DNA of 64,000 bases, from sequence record ON922919. One strand, given 5' to 3'. Under the pieces are notes generated by a model that did no database searches, was not told the origin of the DNA, and was given only the letters and a program-made list of their open reading frames with translations. Both the position numbers and the translations under genes were made by a program. Below, one piece after another: positions 2,448 to 48,166 of the stretch. Position 1 is the stretch's first letter, and each line of letters starts with the position of its first letter. This stretch comes from Escherichia phage vB_EcoM_PD205.

Positions 2448-3137
2448 ATGAGTGAACTAACTAAGCAGCAGATTATTAATGCCTTACCTGCTAACTTCAA
2501 AAACAGTGTGACCCAAGAGTTAGTAGACACAATTAACAACATAACCCAAGACCAACTGGTTGCTGAGTCCTTCCGTGAAAACTTCATCTCCTACTCTGGT
2601 GTTATGAAGGAAGGTAAGTTTAAGACCCAGGACTACATGAATGCAGTTCAGTATGTGACTTACAAACATATGGGCTACTCAAATAAGGAAGCCTACTTCA
2701 AGACATTCCCTAACCGACAAGCAGAACTTGTTGCACGAGGAACCAGTGAGAAAGATATTAGTGCCTACGTATCTGCTTACCACAGGGGTAAGTTAGTTAA
2801 CCTCATCATGGAACAAAGTTTGGTTCCAGTGTGGATTGTGAACCAGGACAATTATCAGAAGGCAATCAACGTTCAGGTTGAACTGATGACTACAGCAGCA
2901 AGTGAGAAAGTAAGATGTGATGCAGCTAACTCTATCCTTACTCACTTAGCTAAACCGAAAGACCAGGTAACTAATATCAACCTGGACTTGAGAGAGAACT
3001 CCGGATTGACCGACCTCAGGGCAACACTTGCTGCATTAGCTGAACAGCAGATTAATGCAATCAACAGTGGTGTACCCACCAAAGAGGTTGCTGGTTCTAA
3101 ACTAGTACGTGCAGATGAGGACATTACAGATGTCTGA
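2448..3137 (+). CDS. putative terminase small subunit (N4 gp69-like by position)
   Basis: 229-aa ORF immediately upstream of and overlapping the large terminase; first gene of the rightward late block. Confidence 0.4.
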   Translation: MSELTKQQIINALPANFKNSVTQELVDTINNITQDQLVAESFRENFISYSGVMKEGKFKTQDYMNAVQYVTYKHMGYSNKEAYFKTFPNRQAELVARGTSEKDISAYVSAYHRGKLVNLIMEQSLVPVWIVNQDNYQKAINVQVELMTTAASEKVRCDAANSILTHLAKPKDQVTNINLDLRENSGLTDLRATLAALAEQQINAINSGVPTKEVAGSKLVRADEDITDV

Positions 3138-4719
3138 GTTAATTAAGCAGGAACTGGATGAATGGCTAGACCAGGTGGATTACTCCCACCTTAATTCATC
3201 TAACTATGTTCCTAGTCAGTTTGCTCTTACCTTTGCCAACTTTATTAAGTTGGTTAACGGCAAAGAGGGTGAGTCCAACAAAACACCTCCAGTTCACTTG
3301 AAGATGCTGGATAAGATGATTAGTCCGAACCAGTATGTAGTTAACCTGTGCTTCCGTGGTGCAGGTAAGACTGCTGTGTTCATGGAATACTTTACTTTGT
3401 TCCTGGCAGTGTTTGGTCACTTACCAAGTTTGGGTAAGGTAGAGGGAATGATTTACGTATCTGACTCAATGGATAACGGTGCTAAGTCTGCACGTAAGAA
3501 CATCGAGTTCCGTTACAAGAATAGTGAGTTTCTTCAGCAATGGATACCTGAAGCTACTTTTACAGATAACCTGTTAGAGTTTCGTAATGTAGAAGGGCAT
3601 CGACTAGGTGTTAAGCTGTTTGGTGCTAAGACAGGTCTTCGTGGTACGAAGATATATGGTAAACGTCCAACACTCTGCGTACTGGATGACTTGATTAGTG
3701 ATGGTGATGCTAACTCCAAGACGAGCATGGAAGCTATTAAAGACACCGTTTATAAAGGTGTGAACCATGCTCTTGACCCTACTCGTCGTAAAGTAATCTT
3801 CAACGGTACTCCCTTTAATAAGGAAGACATTATCATTGAAGCTGTTGAGTCTGGTGCATGGGATGTCAACGTATGGCCTGTATGTGAGAAGTTCCCTTGC
3901 AGTAGAGAAGAATTTCAGGGTGCATGGGATGACCGTTTCTCTTACGACTACATTAAAGCCCAATATGACATGGCAGTTAAGACTGGTAAGCTGGCAGGTT
4001 TCTATCAGGAACTTATGCTCCGTATCAGTTCTGAAGATGAGAGACTGGTTCAGGATAGTGAAATTAGATGGTATAGCAGACAGCAACTATTAAGGATGAA
4101 GTCTTGCTATAACTATTACATCACAACCGACTTTGCTACATCGGAGAAACAGACCAGTGACTACAGTGTCATATCAGTTTGGGCTTATAGTTCTAATGGA
4201 GATTGGTTCTGGGTTGATGGTGTGGCTAATCGTCAGCTTATGGATAAAAACTTTGATGACCTGTTCCGTCTGGTTCAAGAATACCAACCACAAAACGTTG
4301 GGGTCGAAATCACAGGGCAGCAAGGTGGATTCATTTCACTCCTTCAGAAGGAAATGATTAACCGTAATGTCTTCTTTAACTTTGCATCTTCTGAGGGTGG
4401 TAAGCCAGGCATCCGTCCTGTAACTTCTAAGCTGTCACGCTTTAACCTGGTAGTTCCATGGTTCAAAGCTGGTAAGATGTATTTCCCGGAAGAGTTGAGA
4501 GACTCAACTATTATGGGTCTGTTCATGGGTCAGATTAAACTAGCTACCATTAATGGAATCAAAGGCAAGGATGACTGTATTGATACTATCTCCATGCTGG
4601 GTTATCTCAATCCTTGGAAGCCGCAAGCAGGTATGACTATGGTGGATAATAAGGGTGACCCAATGTGGGATGACGAAGAAGAAGATAGTGTTAACCCACT
4701 ACGTTCATACATTGTGTGA
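3109..4719 (+). CDS. terminase large subunit
   Basis: 536 aa; Walker A-like RGAGKTA, Walker B-like CVLDDLISD, C-terminal acidic nuclease-like region; upstream of structural genes. Confidence 0.8.
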   Translation: MQMRTLQMSELIKQELDEWLDQVDYSHLNSSNYVPSQFALTFANFIKLVNGKEGESNKTPPVHLKMLDKMISPNQYVVNLCFRGAGKTAVFMEYFTLFLAVFGHLPSLGKVEGMIYVSDSMDNGAKSARKNIEFRYKNSEFLQQWIPEATFTDNLLEFRNVEGHRLGVKLFGAKTGLRGTKIYGKRPTLCVLDDLISDGDANSKTSMEAIKDTVYKGVNHALDPTRRKVIFNGTPFNKEDIIIEAVESGAWDVNVWPVCEKFPCSREEFQGAWDDRFSYDYIKAQYDMAVKTGKLAGFYQELMLRISSEDERLVQDSEIRWYSRQQLLRMKSCYNYYITTDFATSEKQTSDYSVISVWAYSSNGDWFWVDGVANRQLMDKNFDDLFRLVQEYQPQNVGVEITGQQGGFISLLQKEMINRNVFFNFASSEGGKPGIRPVTSKLSRFNLVVPWFKAGKMYFPEELRDSTIMGLFMGQIKLATINGIKGKDDCIDTISMLGYLNPWKPQAGMTMVDNKGDPMWDDEEEDSVNPLRSYIV

Positions 4720-4725
4720 GGAACC

Positions 4726-5436
4726 ATGCAAAAATTATCGGAAGTATATCGTGGCCTGGCACTAAGTACCTTGAAAGGTACTGGTGCAGTCACTGATGAC
4801 AGATTAGATATTGAACCAGATAGTAAGCCTGAGATATTAGCTGCTATTAATGAGGGACTGGTACGACTGCATAGTCGTTTCCCTCTTAGAACTAATAGCT
4901 GCATTGTGGAGATGAAGGAAGGTCGCACTGATTATCCCCTTCAATCTAAGTATGCTTACTCCAGATTTACTAAGCCTACTCTTGAGATTCAATACCCGTA
5001 TATCATGGATGGGTTCATGAAACCTTTCCAGGATGACGTTATTAAAATCTTAAATGTGTTTGATAACTCAGGGAATCGACGTAGACTGAACGACGATTCA
5101 GACCCCCATGCAATCTTCACCCCAAGACCGGATACTATTCAGTGTATGCGACCTCGACACTTCGAGGCACTTAACGTAACTTATCAAGCTAAGCACCCTG
5201 TACTTACGGGTGATGAAGAACAGGAAGTTGACTTAGCAGACACGCTAATGACAGCACTTCATAACTGGGTGGGTTATCGTTACCACACTGGTTTAAATAC
5301 TCCGGAAGCTAATGCTAAGGCAGCAGAGTATCTGCAAACGTATGAAAGCATCTGTGGTGAGGTTGTTGATTATGACCTGGCTAATGGAAGTATTTCAATT
5401 ACCGAAACTAAATTTGAACAACGAGGATGGCGATGA
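4726..5436 (+). CDS. hypothetical structural-module protein
   Basis: 236-aa ORF co-oriented and tightly packed between terminase and large tail genes. Confidence 0.4.
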   Translation: MQKLSEVYRGLALSTLKGTGAVTDDRLDIEPDSKPEILAAINEGLVRLHSRFPLRTNSCIVEMKEGRTDYPLQSKYAYSRFTKPTLEIQYPYIMDGFMKPFQDDVIKILNVFDNSGNRRRLNDDSDPHAIFTPRPDTIQCMRPRHFEALNVTYQAKHPVLTGDEEQEVDLADTLMTALHNWVGYRYHTGLNTPEANAKAAEYLQTYESICGEVVDYDLANGSISITETKFEQRGWR

Positions 5437-43408: not shown

Positions 43409-44328
43409 CGCTTAACCTGTCCCTCCACGACCTTGATAGCACCCTTGCCACCTTTTTCAGCCATGAAGATACGAGCAGATGCCATATCGTCAAAGTTTTT
43501 GGTACTTCTGGCTCCAGGTACATCTACCTTAGAAGCATCAGAGAAGTATTTGAATTGTGGCTCTGTTCGCCACAACTCCTCGTCAGTACATTCAGGAATT
43601 TCCTCTTCAGGAGCATTCCAGTACTTTTCAATGAGGTGAATCTTCTCTTCTACCCAACGTTCAGTCTTATCGACAGATAGCAACGGAATATCCTTATGCA
43701 TAATACGATTAGCAGGATAGTTCGGATTGCTATTAGCCATGTGCTTCATGAAGTCAGTGAAGATGTAGTTAATACGAATTACATCCTCAGTAATGATGTC
43801 GTTGTGAATCCAACGATACAAGCTGCCTTGCATCTTGTGTTCATCATCACGGGAACCAGCAACCCAGGAATAGGTTGAGGTAGACTTAAAGTCCTGCAAC
43901 AGACCTTCTGTTACGATGTCAAACTTACCACCGATAGTCCAACCCTTAACTACCCTGGTTCCACGTTGTTCAATGTAGATTGGGATAAGGTCAGGGTTAG
44001 CATCAAAGTCTGCTTTGGTTGGGTTAATGACTACTGCATCAATTACTCGCTGAGGATAACCTAGCTTCTTCAATGCAGTCTTGTGGCCCAGCTTCCAGGC
44101 TTTCTCGATAGAATCATGTAAACCAGTACCCATTGATGTGGAGACGAAATCCATAACATCAATTGACTGGTCACTTAAATCTACACGATGTTTCATGACG
44201 ATTTGCTTAATGGGCTTAAGCAATGTAGTAACAGACAGATACTTAGGATTGTCTACGTAATCATACTCATCATGTAATAGCCATACAGCCAGAGCCAGTG
44301 AGACATCATGATTGTTGGTTATCTTCAT
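43348..44328 (-). CDS. putative Cas4/RecB-family (PD-(D/E)XK) nuclease with Cys cluster
   Basis: 326 aa; C-terminal C-x2-C-x5-C (CLYCPVATIC); D..E..K-like segment FDIVTEGLLQDFK. Confidence 0.4.
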   Translation of the reverse strand: MKITNNHDVSLALAVWLLHDEYDYVDNPKYLSVTTLLKPIKQIVMKHRVDLSDQSIDVMDFVSTSMGTGLHDSIEKAWKLGHKTALKKLGYPQRVIDAVVINPTKADFDANPDLIPIYIEQRGTRVVKGWTIGGKFDIVTEGLLQDFKSTSTYSWVAGSRDDEHKMQGSLYRWIHNDIITEDVIRINYIFTDFMKHMANSNPNYPANRIMHKDIPLLSVDKTERWVEEKIHLIEKYWNAPEEEIPECTDEELWRTEPQFKYFSDASKVDVPGARSTKNFDDMASARIFMAEKGGKGAIKVVEGQVKRCLYCPVATICKQRERYFPS

Positions 44329-44590
44329 TATAAGCCTTTTTCAATATGCGATTGGCATAGTGCACAATCTTCTCTGAGTCGTACACCGAAGAATTACCAG
44401 GTTTACCATTACCCATACGGGCAGCAGCATTTCGCCATAGAGCTTTAAAGGCACAACCTTCATCGAAGGTCATGCCCAGTGCTTGGATAATATCCTCACA
44501 CTCTGCTTGGTATGGTTCTTGCTCTTTCCGCTGAGGGTGCTTAACTGACACTACATACCAGTTATTCAATCCACCGGAGAGCTTAGTCAT
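44306..44590 (-). CDS. hypothetical protein
   Basis: 94-aa ORF, co-oriented, tightly packed. Confidence 0.35.
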   Translation of the reverse strand: MTKLSGGLNNWYVVSVKHPQRKEQEPYQAECEDIIQALGMTFDEGCAFKALWRNAAARMGNGKPGNSSVYDSEKIVHYANRILKKAYNEDNQQS

Positions 44591-44895
44591 TATTCCCCCT
44601 TGGGGATCATGTTTGCCTGGAACTCTGGTTCAGACATCAGACCCAGGTTGCTGAGAGACAGATAAACAATGTCTTTCAAATCAACCGAAGTGTCGAAACG
44701 TTGGTCCAGACTAATCTTCAGGGAATGATTGGCACGAGCCAAATCTTTGTAGGTCACATAAGGTTCATCAGTGAGCAACATTGTGTTCATGGTAAGCAGG
44801 GAACCATCATCCACTTTAGGAAGTTGGAATACTACCTGTGCTGCTACCATCCAATGATATTTTTTGACTACAGTTTCTTTAGTACTTTTGGTCAT
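44590..44895 (-). CDS. hypothetical protein
   Basis: 101-aa ORF, start overlaps upstream stop. Confidence 0.35.
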   Translation of the reverse strand: MTKSTKETVVKKYHWMVAAQVVFQLPKVDDGSLLTMNTMLLTDEPYVTYKDLARANHSLKISLDQRFDTSVDLKDIVYLSLSNLGLMSEPEFQANMIPKGE

Positions 44896-45722
44896 GCGAA
44901 TGCCTTTTGAATTATTTGATGAACTTCTTCTGGGGTAGCGTGATTTGGAATTTCAATCTCGTTAGCCCACGTTGGGTAGAACAAGGATAGTTCCCCACCC
45001 AAGCCAACTTCTGGATGAGCAATATCGGGATGGTCTTGCCAGTTAACGGCCTCAACCAAGTGCTTGTTCGTGAACTGCAAGGTATCCATGTTGTCACGAA
45101 TCATGAAGTACTGAGCATCGTGAATGTGAATACTAGGACGTATATCTAACCTGAACTCACTGGCTCTGACTTTACGCATAAATTCTGAACCAGCACGATT
45201 ATTTAGTAGACACCAGCTTTGCCCTAAAGCATTACCAGCAGTTCTGCCTTCTGCTTCTGCTTCATACGGAGTCTTACATGTCCCACGTAATACTTGAGCC
45301 AGTAAAGGAGTACGCACTCTCAAACCGAATGCGGCAGTAACATAACCAGTTTTGGCAGCTTCGTCTAGTTTAGCCTGAACCCACATGTCGCTAACTACAT
45401 AGAGGTCGTGATAACGTTTCTCTGTAGTCTTAGCCTTCTCTTCAGAGAAGCCACAGTTTTTCATTAAGCCCATATATGTACCACCATAAGTAAGCAAGAA
45501 GGTTGGAGCCTTCGAGTCACTACGTAATGATTTGTACTTATGCTGGATGGAGTTAATGGATTCTACCGTGTCTTCTATGTCTGGCATCTGCTCACCAAAG
45601 TAAGCATATGCACGGAGACTGTGTCCATCATAGCCCGTTGAACTACCTACCTTTTTTACAGATTGAATCTTTTTGCCAGTGAAATCATGAGTTGATTTTG
45701 GCAAGTTGTCGAATTGCGACAT
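44892..45722 (-). CDS. DNA polymerase family A, C-terminal fragment (fingers/palm, motifs B and C)
   Basis: 276 aa; motif B-like RSDSKAPTFLLTYGGTY (R..K...F..YG) and HD motif IHIHDAQ; own RBS GAGGAGG upstream of ATG. Confidence 0.75.
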   Translation of the reverse strand: MSQFDNLPKSTHDFTGKKIQSVKKVGSSTGYDGHSLRAYAYFGEQMPDIEDTVESINSIQHKYKSLRSDSKAPTFLLTYGGTYMGLMKNCGFSEEKAKTTEKRYHDLYVVSDMWVQAKLDEAAKTGYVTAAFGLRVRTPLLAQVLRGTCKTPYEAEAEGRTAGNALGQSWCLLNNRAGSEFMRKVRASEFRLDIRPSIHIHDAQYFMIRDNMDTLQFTNKHLVEAVNWQDHPDIAHPEVGLGGELSLFYPTWANEIEIPNHATPEEVHQIIQKAFA

Positions 45723-46227
45723 CTCTGCGGTTCCTCCTCATAACCTCATCCCACTTATGACGGATACCGAGTCTGTCAGCAGTGGTTCTGAGCATTTTAT
45801 GCAGTGTTTCTGCACGTCTGCCTATTTCTTGGGCGAGTTCACCTACTTGCTTACCTTCCAGTACTTCAAATAGGTACTTCTCCTTGTCATTTGCAGACAT
45901 ATATCCAGGACGTAATCCTGTTCGCAGGGCGTGTTCTGAATTTTGGGATGCTGTACACCATTCCAGATTATCCTTATGGGGATTCTGTTTATTCCCATCC
46001 AGATGATTTACATACTTGTATCCATATGGATTGGGAATAAAGTGTTTAGCTACCAGAATATGAACCAATTCCTGTTGGTGCGTACCATCCCCTTTCGCTA
46101 AACCAACCTTAAGATACCCATTAGGATTTACTGTTGGTTTAAGCGGGGAATTGTTAGCAAGATTGGTGATGGAACCATCCTCTGAAATTAGATAACGGTT
46201 CTCAAAGTAGGCTATTGGTATAGGCAT
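45685..46227 (-). CDS. HNH homing endonuclease inserted between the two DNA polymerase halves
   Basis: about 180 aa from Met at 46227 (RBS GGAGAGG); NUMOD-like IAYFENRYLISEDGSITNL, HNH core with H..N..N (VNHLDGNKQNPHKDNLEWCTASQN), C-terminal HTH-like tail. Confidence 0.7.
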   Translation of the reverse strand: MPIPIAYFENRYLISEDGSITNLANNSPLKPTVNPNGYLKVGLAKGDGTHQQELVHILVAKHFIPNPYGYKYVNHLDGNKQNPHKDNLEWCTASQNSEHALRTGLRPGYMSANDKEKYLFEVLEGKQVGELAQEIGRRAETLHKMLRTTADRLGIRHKWDEVMRRNRRDVAIRQLAKINS

Positions 46228-48166
46228 TATAAAATTCCTCTCCGGTAAATGTTTTCCCATCATAAACAATTGTATCATCATCTCGGATATGATGGTCAAC
46301 TCCATCGATAGTAACGCTATACACAATTACCCCCATGTACACTTTGAGCTTCTGTGGGTCTTTAGTAGTTAGTGCAGAGATTCTGTCTTCCAGCGAGGCG
46401 AAATCCAAGCCGCAAAATATCCAGCCTGGAGGAGCTTCGAAGCATTTCTTAATCTTCTTGGCATATTTAGAGCCGGATGGAATTGTTTGTAGATTTGGCT
46501 CTGAAGCCGATAGCCTACCGGAGACTGTGCCTCCCAGATTGAGGTTACCGAACAGGTAGTGCCAGCCATCCGGTCCCGGTTGGGCATTCCGGAAAGCTGG
46601 TATAAAGCTAGTGATAATCTTATCCACGAGCTTATAGTCGATAAGTGCATTGAGCAGTTCCTTAACATCTTCACTTTGCGTATGTGTACGCAGTGCTTTA
46701 ATAGTGTCACCGTCAGTAGCAGGTTGCTTGCTCTTAGTAAGACCAAGAACTGGTAAGCCAATATAATCAAATAACAGCTTCTGTAGCTGCGGTCCGGAGT
46801 TAGGGTTAAACTCGATGTCACAATCAGCAAGTGTTACTTGTTTCTTCTTGAGCTTAGCATTCTTATCGTCTACCCATTCCTGACGAAGCATCAGGGTGAA
46901 GTTCTTCATGAGCTTAGACTCACGAATAGTTTTCAGAGCCTGGTTCCTGTCAGTTTCCATCTCTTTAGCTACTTGGTTAACGGTATCCATATTCATGGGC
47001 ATACCGGTTAACTGCATCTGGATAATATCTTCACAAGCTGGCTTAAAGATGTTGTTGTAAACATCCAATTGGTCATCAGCAACGAGAGTATCCCAGTGCT
47101 TCTCATAAGTGTACCACGTACATAAACCATCAATGAGGTTGTAACGTAACAGTTGCTCATTAGGAATAAGACGAATGTCTTTAATATCATCCTGAGCATA
47201 GTTACCAGCATACTCCTGAGCCTGGTCTTTCAGACTAAGGTGATTACCAGCACAACTGTTAGTAGCCAGGTAGGTGATTAACTTAGTGCAATCCCAGTTA
47301 CGCAGCATGATTTCCATGCCATGTAGTAAACCTTCTGTATCAATCAGGTTATCCATGAATAACTGATAGATAAGCACATACACGTCATAGCTAATGTTGT
47401 GATACATCTGCCGTTGGGTGTACTTAATGAAGAACTCACGTAGAAGATTTCGAACAATATCATTTCTGTTGATACGCCCATAAGGTGCTTCAGTAGCTCC
47501 AGGTATCGGCTCGTAGTCCACATTAAAGGCTATGCCTTGTGTCTTACTCCAACAGAATGTAATTGTTCCTATACCGGCGTTATAGTGCTTTAAACCGAAT
47601 GCTTCAATGTCTATAGCCAGTGGCTTATTCATCTCAAGCAACTGGTCTAGCCAGGCTTTAATCTTTTCTGGGGTATCCGGGTAGGCTTCAAACTCAATGA
47701 TTCCTTGACCTGGTTCAGCATACTGCCCACGTATGTGGTTAAGTAATGCATCCATACCCTGAGCAATCTTGGATTTCACTACAGGAGGATCATAAAAGAC
47801 CTGCCTGTAGCTAGGTGCATAGATAACTTTCTGCTTACCCCATACTGAGTCACAAACATAGCCGAGGTTAGCCTCTGCTTTTGCTTCTTTAGTCAGTATT
47901 TTAAAGTAATCAGAATCGGTACAGATTATGTATTGAGTTTCTGCATCATCCAGTACTTGTTGCAGTTCCTGCTGTATGAACTCCTTAATCTCCCTTGCAG
48001 GAGTCTTCTTCTTGCCGGGGGCAGAATGAAGTTCAATGAAGATGAAATCTTCCATGCTTAGGTCATTGGGCAGCAGGTAGGTTTTAATCATCTCCTCCCT
48101 TCGGATTTGATGACCGAGGATAGCAATGGGGTACTTACCCGTATCTTGAGAGGTGATGTAACGCAT
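46202..48166 (-). CDS. DNA polymerase family A, N-terminal fragment (3-5 exonuclease plus polymerase motif A)
   Basis: 654 aa; Exo I LAIDIEAFG, Exo II YHNISYDVYVL, motif A CGLDFASLEDRISAL near the C-terminus. Confidence 0.8.
   Translation of the reverse strand: MRYITSQDTGKYPIAILGHQIRREEMIKTYLLPNDLSMEDFIFIELHSAPGKKKTPAREIKEFIQQELQQVLDDAETQYIICTDSDYFKILTKEAKAEANLGYVCDSVWGKQKVIYAPSYRQVFYDPPVVKSKIAQGMDALLNHIRGQYAEPGQGIIEFEAYPDTPEKIKAWLDQLLEMNKPLAIDIEAFGLKHYNAGIGTITFCWSKTQGIAFNVDYEPIPGATEAPYGRINRNDIVRNLLREFFIKYTQRQMYHNISYDVYVLIYQLFMDNLIDTEGLLHGMEIMLRNWDCTKLITYLATNSCAGNHLSLKDQAQEYAGNYAQDDIKDIRLIPNEQLLRYNLIDGLCTWYTYEKHWDTLVADDQLDVYNNIFKPACEDIIQMQLTGMPMNMDTVNQVAKEMETDRNQALKTIRESKLMKNFTLMLRQEWVDDKNAKLKKKQVTLADCDIEFNPNSGPQLQKLLFDYIGLPVLGLTKSKQPATDGDTIKALRTHTQSEDVKELLNALIDYKLVDKIITSFIPAFRNAQPGPDGWHYLFGNLNLGGTVSGRLSASEPNLQTIPSGSKYAKKIKKCFEAPPGWIFCGLDFASLEDRISALTTKDPQKLKVYMGVIVYSVTIDGVDHHIRDDDTIVYDGKTFTGEEFYNAYTNSLL

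Follow-up and report, generated by a model that had tools for sequence, protein, structure and literature searches.

A cassette with a free-standing HNH endonuclease gene and conserved tail codons divides the family-A DNA polymerase gene of a Gamaleyavirus

The window (the whole 64,000-nucleotide stretch of Escherichia phage vB_EcoM_PD205 analyzed here, record ON922919) is a Gamaleyavirus (G7C/N4-like) genome in which the DNA polymerase gene is represented by two open reading frames (ORFs) with a third ORF between them. All three lie on the minus strand, as do the features described below, and from their coordinates they occupy three different frames; their positions are as originally predicted. 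The upstream ORF (46202–48166, 654 aa) encodes the polymerase N-fragment, which comprises the 3′–5′ exonuclease motifs, the thumb, and palm motif A followed by a 44-aa C-terminal tail, and matches Pfam DNA_pol_A over positions 11–179 of 381 (E = 1.9e-23) and PHROG 17, DNA polymerase (E = 6.5e-133). The downstream ORF (44892–45722, 276 aa) encodes the C-fragment, comprising the fingers with motif B and palm motif C, and matches DNA_pol_A over positions 200–303 of 381 (E = 3.3e-9) and PHROG 2573 (E = 3.9e-64). The third ORF (45685–46227, 180 aa) is a free-standing HNH homing-endonuclease gene that overlaps the N-fragment gene by 26 nt and the C-fragment gene by 38 nt.

Motif A (DFASLEDR, 46382–46405), taken from the translation of the N-fragment, falls on motif A when aligned with Pol I structures, while motif B (RSDSKAPTFLLTYG, 45483–45524) and motif C (HD, 45117–45122) are read from the sequence of the C-fragment, a partition that the original prediction had described correctly. 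With motifs A, B, and C in order, the split polymerase belongs by sequence to the Pol I-type family A and is N4 gp39-like. The N-fragment is collinear with residues 1–610 of the intact gp39 of phage St11Ph5 and the C-fragment with its C-terminal part; joined, they are collinear with the entire 859-aa protein, only a TD dipeptide being replaced. Alignment of the intact homologue with Pol I structures continues through the position of the split.

Alignment to intact polymerases, suggested with the original prediction, fixes the breakpoint at KVY/TD/GYDGH, on the palm/fingers boundary and, as anticipated, between catalytic motifs A and B. The inserted cassette, delimited against St11Ph5 and PD38, measures 701 nt (45636–46336) and stands in place of 6 nt (ACC GAT, encoding TD) of the intact alleles of St11Ph5, PD38, and Bp4. 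The earlier figure of 480 nt holds for the gap between the polymerase ORFs (479 nt) but not for the foreign DNA. Similarly, the upstream ORF had been described as ending about 15 residues after motif A; the polymerase homology does stop there (KVY, 46337), but the ORF continues for 44 codons.

In order, the cassette contains (i) the N-tail codons and a stop codon, (ii) the HNH gene, and (iii) a Shine–Dalgarno sequence, a start codon, and the C-tail codons, so that translation of the upstream half ends, and that of the downstream half begins, within inserted DNA. About 168 nt of the cassette fall outside the HNH ORF, 119 nt on the 5′ side and 49 nt on the 3′ side, and encode the tails. The N-tail consists of 44 acidic residues (MGVIVYSVTIDGVDHHIRDDDTIVYDGKTFTGEEFYNAYTNSLL, 46205–46336; stop codon 46202–46204) and ends the N-fragment, whereas the C-tail comprises 29 mostly basic residues (MSQFDNLPKSTHDFTGKKIQSVKKVGSST, 45636–45722) and opens the C-fragment. 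The predicted ribosome-binding site of the C-fragment gene, GAGGAGG (45733–45739), is present within the 3′ end of the HNH gene, 10 nt ahead of the ATG, and a purine-rich Shine–Dalgarno sequence with ATG or GTG is kept in 12 of 12 lineages. The HNH gene is preceded by the Shine–Dalgarno-like GGAGAGG (46237–46243), read within the N-tail codons TGEE and 9 nt before the ATG, with a purine-rich equivalent in the other lineages. Neither ribosome-binding site shows unusual local RNA structure. With three frames, each provided with its own Shine–Dalgarno sequence and start, the locus has the form of a fractured gene, in which a free-standing endonuclease gene lies between separately translated halves of an enzyme.

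The HNH protein, made up of a NUMOD4 segment, the HNH domain, and a C-terminal helical region, qualifies by sequence as an I-HmuI-like HNH homing endonuclease. It matches Pfam HNH_3 (E = 4.3e-7) and NUMOD4 (23.2 bits, slightly below the 23.4 cut-off), and residues 6–104 match I-HmuI (PDB 1U3E) with E = 8.6e-11; the original identification as an HNH/NUMOD-type ORF in a different frame with its own ribosome-binding site was sound. The His and Asn of the HNH motif are invariant across 6 homologues, and the gene is intact and under selection, with dN/dS values of 0.07–0.15 between lineages.

Both tails are translated, and it is solely in the polymerase frames that purifying selection acts on them. 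The HNH ORF covers 9 codons at the end of the N-tail (8 sense codons and the stop codon) and 12 at the beginning of the C-tail; selection was computed on the remaining 36 N-tail and 17 C-tail codons. On these codons the N-tail has a dN/dS of 0.04–0.12 in the polymerase frame versus 0.5–5 in the other two frames, and the C-tail has a dN/dS of 0.05–0.4 in the polymerase frame. The N-tail has a charge of −4 to −7 and is conserved across ~35 lineages; its conservation could be partly due to overlap with the ribosome-binding site and start of the HNH gene. Predicted alone with AlphaFold2, it adopts four strands and a helix (mean pLDDT 92). The C-tail is constant in length across lineages (29–30 aa), is positively charged in 89% of 64 clusters, and is predicted to be extended and devoid of regular secondary structure (pLDDT ~80). 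Of 32 tail pairs, 29 combine tails of opposite charge. In fold, the N-tail also resembles inteins, if weakly.

The split is neither a chance event nor an assembly artefact, because the same architecture occurs in phage SP5M (94% nucleotide identity), in 18 phage records from four genera, in ~35 distinct metagenomic loci, and, among the 120 protein clusters that best match the C-fragment, in 73. Deposited carriers are SP5M, VEc25, PMBT57, Jura, AL25, SPSP, the BEU phages, AlfredRasser, Pollock, and Pylas, which share with the window the insertion site, the tails, and an HNH gene 69–99% identical; SP5M, VEc25, AlfredRasser, Pollock, and Pylas are viable isolates. The arrangement is already known and annotated in GenBank, as two coding sequences in SP5M, VEc25, and Pollock and as an intron join in AlfredRasser and Pylas; the original prediction had noted neither these annotations nor the conserved tails. 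The Pollock genome announcement terms the element intron-encoded (PMC4319500), and there, as in the AlfredRasser and Pylas records, the intron reading is given without splicing data.

Several comparisons bear on mobility. Presence of the cassette is polymorphic within one genus and within one species. SP5M is a different Gamaleyavirus, ~94% identical to the window in the polymerase region; the two cassettes are 99–100% identical with flanks at ~92–95%, while over 24 kb the window is closer to the cassette-free PD38/Bp4 (94.7%) than to SP5M (92.5%). A diverged tract of ~180 nt immediately downstream of the SP5M cassette is consistent with co-conversion. Between VEc25 and Pollock, the polymerase cores are 51% and 66% identical in amino acids, versus 93% for the N-tail, 93% for the HNH protein, and 97% for the C-tail, and Pollock versus Pylas presents the opposite pattern. 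The tails follow the HNH phylogeny rather than that of the polymerase; they are absent from the uninterrupted St11Ph5, PD38, and Bp4 homologues and are inherited with the element. A 51%-identical HNH gene at a site 21 residues further downstream is accompanied by a homologous N-tail (18.1 bits versus a best of 10.5 among 2000 shuffles). These comparisons show that the tails and the HNH gene travel horizontally as a single unit, both from one phage subfamily to another and into a second insertion site.

The join annotations correspond to a model of the insert as a self-splicing group I intron that carries the HNH ORF and whose removal from the RNA restores a continuous polymerase mRNA. In phage family-A polymerase genes, I-HmuI-type HNH genes classically reside in introns; this very gene is interrupted by HNH-bearing group I introns in related N4-like phages; and the cassette RNA is more stable than its shuffles (z ~ −5.5, the most extreme value among eight segments), although values of −4.3 and −4.8 occur in other coding segments. 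The AlfredRasser and Pylas joins and the wording of the Pollock announcement (PMC4319500) favor the same model. Nevertheless, Rfam Intron_gpI, the covariance model for group I introns, gave no match at E ≤ 10 over 45400–46600, and at gathering score a scan of the window was likewise negative. The same model did recover other interruptions of this gene that contain HNH genes, in Vibrio phage JA-1 (E = 2.6e-5) and in the metagenomic contig L010 (E = 1.8e-4). L010 and a second contig, L027, each hold an intron and this cassette within one polymerase gene; the L010 copy of the cassette gives no Intron_gpI match, unlike the intron beside it. The upstream HNH-bearing interruption of L027 has the layout of the L010 intron, and no separate start codon was called for the exon after it, in contrast to the downstream half here with its conserved Shine–Dalgarno sequence and start. 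The 119-nt and 49-nt flanks of the HNH ORF are under codon-level purifying selection in the exon frames, which counts against an intron because spliced-out RNA would not show it. In addition, the base preceding the would-be 5′ splice site varies (C or T), the ribosome-binding regions lack unusual local structure, and the RNAalifold covariation term for the cassette is +3.4, that is, no support. Neither a ribozyme core (P3–P8) detectable by covariance model nor covariation with flanks unconstrained as protein was found at the cassette, and an intron is accordingly very improbable. The original rejection of an intron thus stands on tail selection, the C-fragment translation signals, and the Intron_gpI and RNAalifold results; its stated reason, that no room is left for an intron core, is too weak for an insert of 701 nt.

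At the protein level, the tails might instead be halves of a very small split intein whose trans-splicing would give one covalently joined polymerase. The order of half-gene with tail, free-standing endonuclease overlapping downstream, and tail with half-gene is the fractured-gene layout (PMC2677866), the tail charges are opposite as in split inteins, and the family consensus at the C-junction, ...VGN/TD, supplies Asn followed by Thr. The last C-tail residue, however, is Asn in no more than 32 of 73 clusters, the window having Ser there, and the +1 residue is Thr or Ser, yet it is also the native T of KVY-TD-GYDGH. N-tail residue 1 varies among M, T, Q, I, V, E, and A, so there is no conserved nucleophile, nor is any Cys conserved. 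Known mini-inteins need ~125 aa or more, whereas the tails sum to 73 aa. The tails have no Pfam Hint or intein match at E ≤ 10, and hhalign against Npu IntN returns a probability of 1.7%. The residues that protein splicing uses at its junctions (a nucleophile at position 1, a C-terminal Asn/Gln/Asp, and Cys/Ser/Thr at +1) are not conserved, which makes an intein extremely unlikely, in agreement with the original prediction. If the polymerase simply works in two pieces, the tails could also be neutral read-through and leader peptides, conserved only through their partial overlap with the HNH gene and with translation signals such as the TGEE codons. The polymerase cores may indeed bind unaided, because palm motifs A and C, to judge from Pol I structures, would share one sheet across the fragments, and the halves of the split Aeh1 ribonucleotide reductase associate without tails (PMC3045599). 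Neutrality is nonetheless unlikely: the non-overlapping tail codons are selected as strongly as the polymerase itself, prediction makes the N-tail a compact domain, dozens of lineages preserve the tail length and charge pattern, and a homologous N-tail travels with the HNH gene at a different insertion site. Finally, virtually no credence can be given to a polymerase gene that is merely inactivated while another polymerase replicates the phage. Nothing beyond the interruption itself was found in its support; among cassette-bearing phages both halves are under strong purifying selection (dN/dS 0.03–0.06), every catalytic motif is intact, and the split form is common among the C-fragment-like clusters and present in several independently isolated lytic phages.

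The preferred explanation, with a probability of about 0.8, is a homing-endonuclease fractured gene: the cassette homed into the polymerase gene, the halves reassemble non-covalently, and the tails serve as an interaction module. The three ORFs, the selection on the tails, and the conserved translation signals of the C-fragment support the original view that a free-standing HNH gene splits the polymerase, which would be made as two polypeptides that must associate; we infer non-covalent reassembly, a role of the tails in it, and homing activity. In this mechanism, a mobile cassette would home into the Gamaleyavirus family-A polymerase gene at KVY/TD/GYDGH, giving the upstream half a 44-codon extension and a stop codon, bringing an HNH gene with its own ribosome-binding site and start codon, and furnishing the downstream half, from its 3′ end, with a ribosome-binding site, a start codon, and a 29-codon extension. 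A single transcript would then be translated into an acidic-tailed Pol-N, the HNH enzyme, and a basic-tailed Pol-C, and Pol-N and Pol-C would associate non-covalently into an active polymerase. As the cassette's own interaction module, the tails would render the insertion phenotypically neutral. During mixed infections, the HNH enzyme would cut or nick cassette-free alleles, and recombinational repair would copy the cassette into the cut allele. More tentatively, the tails may constitute a portable, conserved heterodimerization module that travels with the endonuclease, perhaps a shrunken and splicing-dead remnant of a split intein, in which the acidic 44-aa mini-domain of four strands and a helix would capture the extended, basic 29-aa peptide.

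The closest parallel is the "genes-in-pieces" ribonucleotide reductase of Aeromonas phage Aeh1, nrdA-a / mobE / nrdA-b (Friedrich et al. 2007, as cited in PMC8849078). In both cases, the catalytic core of an essential replication-related enzyme is split by a free-standing HNH-family endonuclease whose gene overlaps that of the downstream half; the halves bear element-derived C- and N-terminal tails of opposite charge; and splicing, whether of RNA or of protein, is not involved (in the window, apparently not). According to Crona et al. (2010, PMC3045599), the Aeh1 enzyme depends on its tails for activity, although they are dispensable for mutual binding of the halves and needed only for a higher-order assembly; the role of the tails in the window could therefore differ. 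The systems differ in the enzyme (NrdA there, a family-A DNA polymerase in the window) and in the tail of the upstream half, which is basic in Aeh1 and acidic here. Aeh1 is a single case, whereas the present tails form a conserved family with dozens of lineages and two insertion sites and include an N-tail predicted to be a folded mini-domain. Function was shown biochemically for Aeh1, whereas it is deduced for the window's polymerase.

The fractured-genes model (Dassa et al. 2009, PMC2677866), built on marine phage metagenomes and mainly on phage replication genes, holds that the invading endonuclease provides a stop codon and a start codon and overlaps the gene that follows it. The window shares the order of half-gene, free-standing endonuclease, and half-gene, the element-derived upstream stop and downstream start, and an endonuclease/downstream overlap (6–69 bp in the Dassa loci, 38 nt here). 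Those loci, however, mostly carry full split-intein halves (~100 aa and 35–40 aa) with catalytic residues, against tails of 44 and 29 aa that lack conserved splicing residues, and their endonucleases are GIY-YIG or Vsr-like rather than HNH. A further relationship is to the group I introns of polymerase genes. In SPO1, such an intron in the family-A polymerase gene encodes I-HmuI; it and the introns of JA-1, L010, and L027 involve the same endonuclease family and the same kind of target gene, but they have non-coding flanks and a recognizable ribozyme core, whereas the flanks of the cassette are coding, it brings a start for the downstream half, and it gives no ribozyme signal. A second HNH cassette splits the same polymerase into two translated, tailed halves in the Gamaleyavirus phages U1G, ST4, PGN829.1, and phi G17. 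It lies at CFEAPP/GW, 5 residues before motif A and ~33 residues upstream of the present site, and encodes an unrelated HNH protein of 219 aa; its tails (25 aa basic and 44 aa acidic) are likewise unrelated to those of the window, look helical, and have the opposite charge polarity.

If the tails are indeed such a portable module, the cassette would represent a third, non-splicing route, besides introns and inteins, by which a selfish element can invade an essential gene at its catalytic core and leave it functional, and the element would apparently be able to reach new sites with the same tail module.

The window comes from a Gamaleyavirus genome (G7C-like, N4-like Schitoviridae) that is ~94–95% identical over 24 kb to PD38, Bp4, and ECBP1. 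Its minus strand carries three overlapping ORFs, each in its own frame: (i) a 654-aa N-fragment of the DNA polymerase (46202..48166), which matches positions 11–179 of the 381 in Pfam DNA_pol_A and bears motif A (DFASLEDR), (ii) a 180-aa HNH protein (45685..46227) with HNH_3 and NUMOD4 domains, and (iii) a 276-aa C-fragment (44892..45722), which matches DNA_pol_A positions 200–303 and bears motif B (RSDSKAPTFLLTYG) and motif C (IHIHD). The Shine-Dalgarno sequences of the HNH gene (GGAGAGG, 9 nt upstream) and of the C-fragment (GAGGAGG, 10 nt upstream) are both rated good. The original prediction had placed the three ORFs and the motifs correctly. Adjoining the polymerase is a further endonuclease presence/absence polymorphism: 56 nt of the window (44290..44345) occupy the place of 836 nt in PD38 that hold part of a gp41-like ORF and a gene annotated as a homing endonuclease. 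The window ORF at 44306..44590 (94 aa) is shorter than its PD38 homologue (158 aa).

When aligned to the uninterrupted alleles of St11Ph5, PD38, and Bp4, the window has 701 nt (45636..46336) in place of 6 nt (ACC GAT). The cassette-free site reads ...AAGGTATATACCGATGGCTATGATGG..., and the uninterrupted protein reads ...KLKVY-TD-GYDGHSLRAY... at this position; KVY and GYDGH flank the insert, and TD is replaced. The inserted DNA had been equated with a 480-nt gap, which falls short of its real extent, because the alignment puts 701 nt at 45636..46336, more than the 479 nt between the polymerase ORFs. The cassette extends the N-fragment by 44 codons at its 3′ end (MGVIVYSVTIDGVDHHIRDDDTIVYDGKTFTGEEFYNAYTNSLL, followed by a stop) and prefixes 29 codons to the C-fragment (MSQFDNLPKSTHDFTGKKIQSVKKVGSST); these N- and C-tails include the peptides MGVIVYSVTIDGVDHHIR... 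(N-tail) and SQFDNLPK.... On Pol I structures, the break lies after motif A of the palm and before the fingers begin, immediately ahead of the conserved D-x-H that comes after motif A.

The polymerase is most probably made as two polypeptides without splicing, a reading to which a probability of about 0.8 is assigned. This was also the original interpretation, and it is supported by coding tails under selection, a preserved C-fragment start, and the lack of an intron match. Between cassette-bearing phages, both polymerase halves evolve under strong purifying selection (dN/dS 0.03–0.06), and several carriers are cultured lytic phages; therefore, the split enzyme must work. The two halves would associate non-covalently, with the tails possibly acting as an additional clamp between them, while the HNH enzyme would home into cassette-free alleles. 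The tails have mean charges of −5.1 (N-tail) and +2.0 (C-tail), the acidic-plus-basic combination occurs in 29 of 32 pairs, and among 64 further C-tails, 89% carry a positive charge. AlphaFold2 predicts the N-tail alone (18-sequence alignment) as a compact unit of four strands and a helix with a mean pLDDT of 92. When the complete C-fragment is modelled (58 sequences), its tail reaches pLDDT 79–86 and has no regular secondary structure, an extended peptide lacking a partner. A fused-tail query for an uninterrupted polymerase with both tails in frame retrieved few candidates and gave 9 short fragments, none spanning both halves, which is a weak negative.

Public annotation of this arrangement is inconsistent, with an intron and a joined CDS in some records and two polymerase genes in others. 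The Pollock genome announcement terms the HNH protein "intron-encoded" (PMC4319500), the AlfredRasser and Pylas GenBank records join the polymerase halves as one CDS, and the intron boundaries in the BASEL paper, which covers AlfredRasser, derive from genome comparison and not from experiment (PMC8594841). The evidence argues against a self-splicing group I intron. The original prediction had denied an intron, and a scan of 45400..46600 with all Rfam covariance models bears this out, as Intron_gpI gives no match at E ≤ 10; the whole window likewise has no Rfam match at gathering score to a group I or group II intron. The search does detect such introns in related genes. In the Vibrio N4-like phage JA-1, an HNH gene with non-coding flanks interrupts motif A (2657..3452) and scores E = 2.6e-5. 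The polymerase of the metagenomic contig L010 is in three pieces; its first interruption, HNH-bearing and located after ...GRLSSSDP (4155..5000), scores E = 1.8e-4, while the second, of the window's cassette type, has no Intron_gpI match in the same search. Outside the HNH ORF, the insert evolves as protein: N-tail dN/dS is 0.04–0.12 in the polymerase frame and 0.5–5 in the other two frames (36 codons without HNH overlap), and that of the C-tail is 0.05–0.4 in frame (17 codons without HNH overlap). All 12 lineages compared have an ATG or GTG start for the C-fragment after a purine-rich Shine-Dalgarno sequence and a C-tail of 29 or 30 aa. Directly ahead of the would-be 5′ splice site, the base is C in some alleles and T in others. 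What points towards an intron is the stability of the cassette RNA, which exceeds that of dinucleotide shuffles with a z of about −5.5, the lowest of eight segments tested. This value is not diagnostic, because z lies between −0.8 and −4.8 for the seven other coding segments of 700 nt taken from the window and the RNAalifold covariation term across four lineages (+3.4) gives no support. Neither ribosome-binding site shows an unusual local fold (z = +1.1 and −0.6). The evidence thus favors two polypeptides, and the "intron" annotations are probably wrong; the joined AlfredRasser and Pylas proteins are therefore probably not made by the phage. A 12-bp stem is predicted between TGAGGTTATGAG (45737..45748, touching the C-fragment Shine-Dalgarno sequence) and CTCATGATTTCA (45680..45691, containing the HNH stop); it is mostly retained in Enquatrovirus and Pollock cassettes and disrupted in Pylas.

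Protein splicing, in which the tails would be the halves of an active trans-splicing intein, is likewise unlikely. Junction residues, size, Pfam, and hhalign together speak strongly against an active intein: the first N-tail residue is variable (M/T/Q/I/V/E/A), the C-tail ends in Asn in only 32 of 73 clusters and in Ser in the window, the tails sum to 73 aa, Pfam returns no intein match, and the hhalign probability is 1.7%. Against PDB sequences, the N-tail profile had matches at chance level only. An origin of the tails from a vestigial intein is possible and can be entertained tentatively.

The split polymerase is neither an artefact nor rare. It is also found in the Gamaleyavirus SP5M, in the Enquatrovirus VEc25, AlfredRasser, PMBT57, Jura, AL25, SPSP, and BEU phages, in the Pollockvirus Pollock, and in the Pylasvirus Pylas. 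Altogether, 18 phage records carry the cassette (HNH identity 69–99%), as do ~35 distinct IMG/VR and metagenome loci. Among the 120 best protein clusters resembling the window C-fragment, 73 are of the tail type, defined by 29–30 residues ahead of GYDGH. Gene callers often make the N-tail its own 42–44-aa protein beginning at the N-tail Met (P0010–P0012, P0013, P0015, P0016, and P0020); the one from Escherichia phage vB_Eco_AL25 (P0013) is annotated "DNA polymerase I". In the contig L027, the N-tail is called separately because the exon ahead of it, which lies behind an HNH-bearing interruption (2514..3500), lacks a start of its own, leaving only the initial Met of the tail to be called. Bp4 (KJ135004.2, 745..3211) has two annotated "DNA polymerase" CDS; its DNA holds no insertion and follows intact polymerase genes collinearly, and the double CDS probably reflects faulty annotation or a frameshift of the deposited sequence and not a genuine split.

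The same gene is interrupted in other ways. The upstream interruption of L027 has a layout like that of the L010 intron, and both contigs combine an upstream HNH-bearing interruption with the tail-bearing cassette in one gene. In U1G (NC_070872.1, 553..3972), ST4, PGN829.1, and phi G17, a second, unrelated cassette with a 219-aa HNH protein splits the polymerase at CFEAPP|GW, 5 residues before motif A and ~33 residues upstream of the window cassette's site. Its tails are a basic one of 25 aa on the N-half and an acidic, helical-looking one of 44 aa on the C-half, and the last residues of the latter, ECFDYEG, resemble the native KCFEAPP in degenerate form. The metagenomic proteins P0001, P0005, and P0008 (116–125 aa) are middle fragments bearing tails of both kinds, and a three-piece polymerase is therefore implied.

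Three sets of sequence comparisons show that the tails are part of the mobile element. The window and SP5M cassettes are 99–100% identical and the surrounding genes ~92–95%, while over 24 kb the window is nearer to cassette-free phages (94.7%) than to SP5M (92.5%). VEc25 and Pollock, which belong to different subfamilies, share 51% and 66% identity in the polymerase cores versus 93% in the N-tail, 93% in the HNH protein, and 97% in the C-tail; Pollock and Pylas display the opposite pattern (polymerase 85%, cassette 38–74%). The IMG/VR contigs L025 and L026 (2300..3450) carry an HNH gene of 51% identity at another point of the polymerase, following ...EMPNI, 21 residues downstream of the window cassette's site; there too, the N-fragment ends in a homologous N-tail (18.1 bits against the tail HMM; best of 2000 composition-matched shuffles, 10.5 bits). 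Their downstream polymerase part shifts frame near motif B (…KQPTF / FALTYQG…), which could be a genuine frameshift or a common assembly error. Just downstream of the SP5M cassette, a tract of ~180 nt (window 45455..45635) is 75–88% identical to the window and St11Ph5 alike; it looks like a donor-derived co-conversion tract, which the window lacks. The HNH protein resembles I-HmuI (PDB 1U3E, E = 8.6e-11) and is probably active, judging from its invariant HNH motif residues and a dN/dS of 0.07–0.15.

Aeh1 NrdA, T4-like gp43, T4 gp39/gp60, and fractured genes already exemplify this class of mechanism. The closest documented case is Aeh1, in which mobE splits nrdA and the enzyme cannot be active without its element-derived tails (Crona et al. 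2010, PMC3045599); the tails are oppositely charged in both systems. In the "fractured gene" model of Dassa et al. (2009, PMC2677866), an invading endonuclease contributes both the stop for the upstream half and the start for the downstream half, with which it overlaps; similarly, the polymerase cassette supplies a stop and a start, and its HNH gene overlaps the downstream gene by 38 nt. The arrangement is already in GenBank, and one-line remarks exist on Pollock (PMC4319500) and on an HNH-split DNA polymerase in Vibrio N4-like phages (PMC3670811); no paper was found that analyses the window's polymerase split beyond such remarks. As far as searches show, four aspects were undescribed before: the tails as a conserved family under selection, their movement, together with the HNH gene, across subfamilies and into a second site, the commonness of the split form in metagenomic N4-like phages, and the probable wrongness of the "intron" annotations.

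The basic picture of homing-endonuclease biology is unchanged by these findings. For a Pol I-type polymerase, the palm/fingers junction is a split site already validated by nature, and the tails form a small tag pair (44 + 29 aa) that may drive reassembly and could serve split-protein engineering. That mobile elements may carry a protein-level antidote to gene fragmentation was raised by Crona et al. (2010) from one case; the cassette family provides broad comparative support for this idea, spanning dozens of lineages and two insertion sites and including transfer between phage subfamilies.
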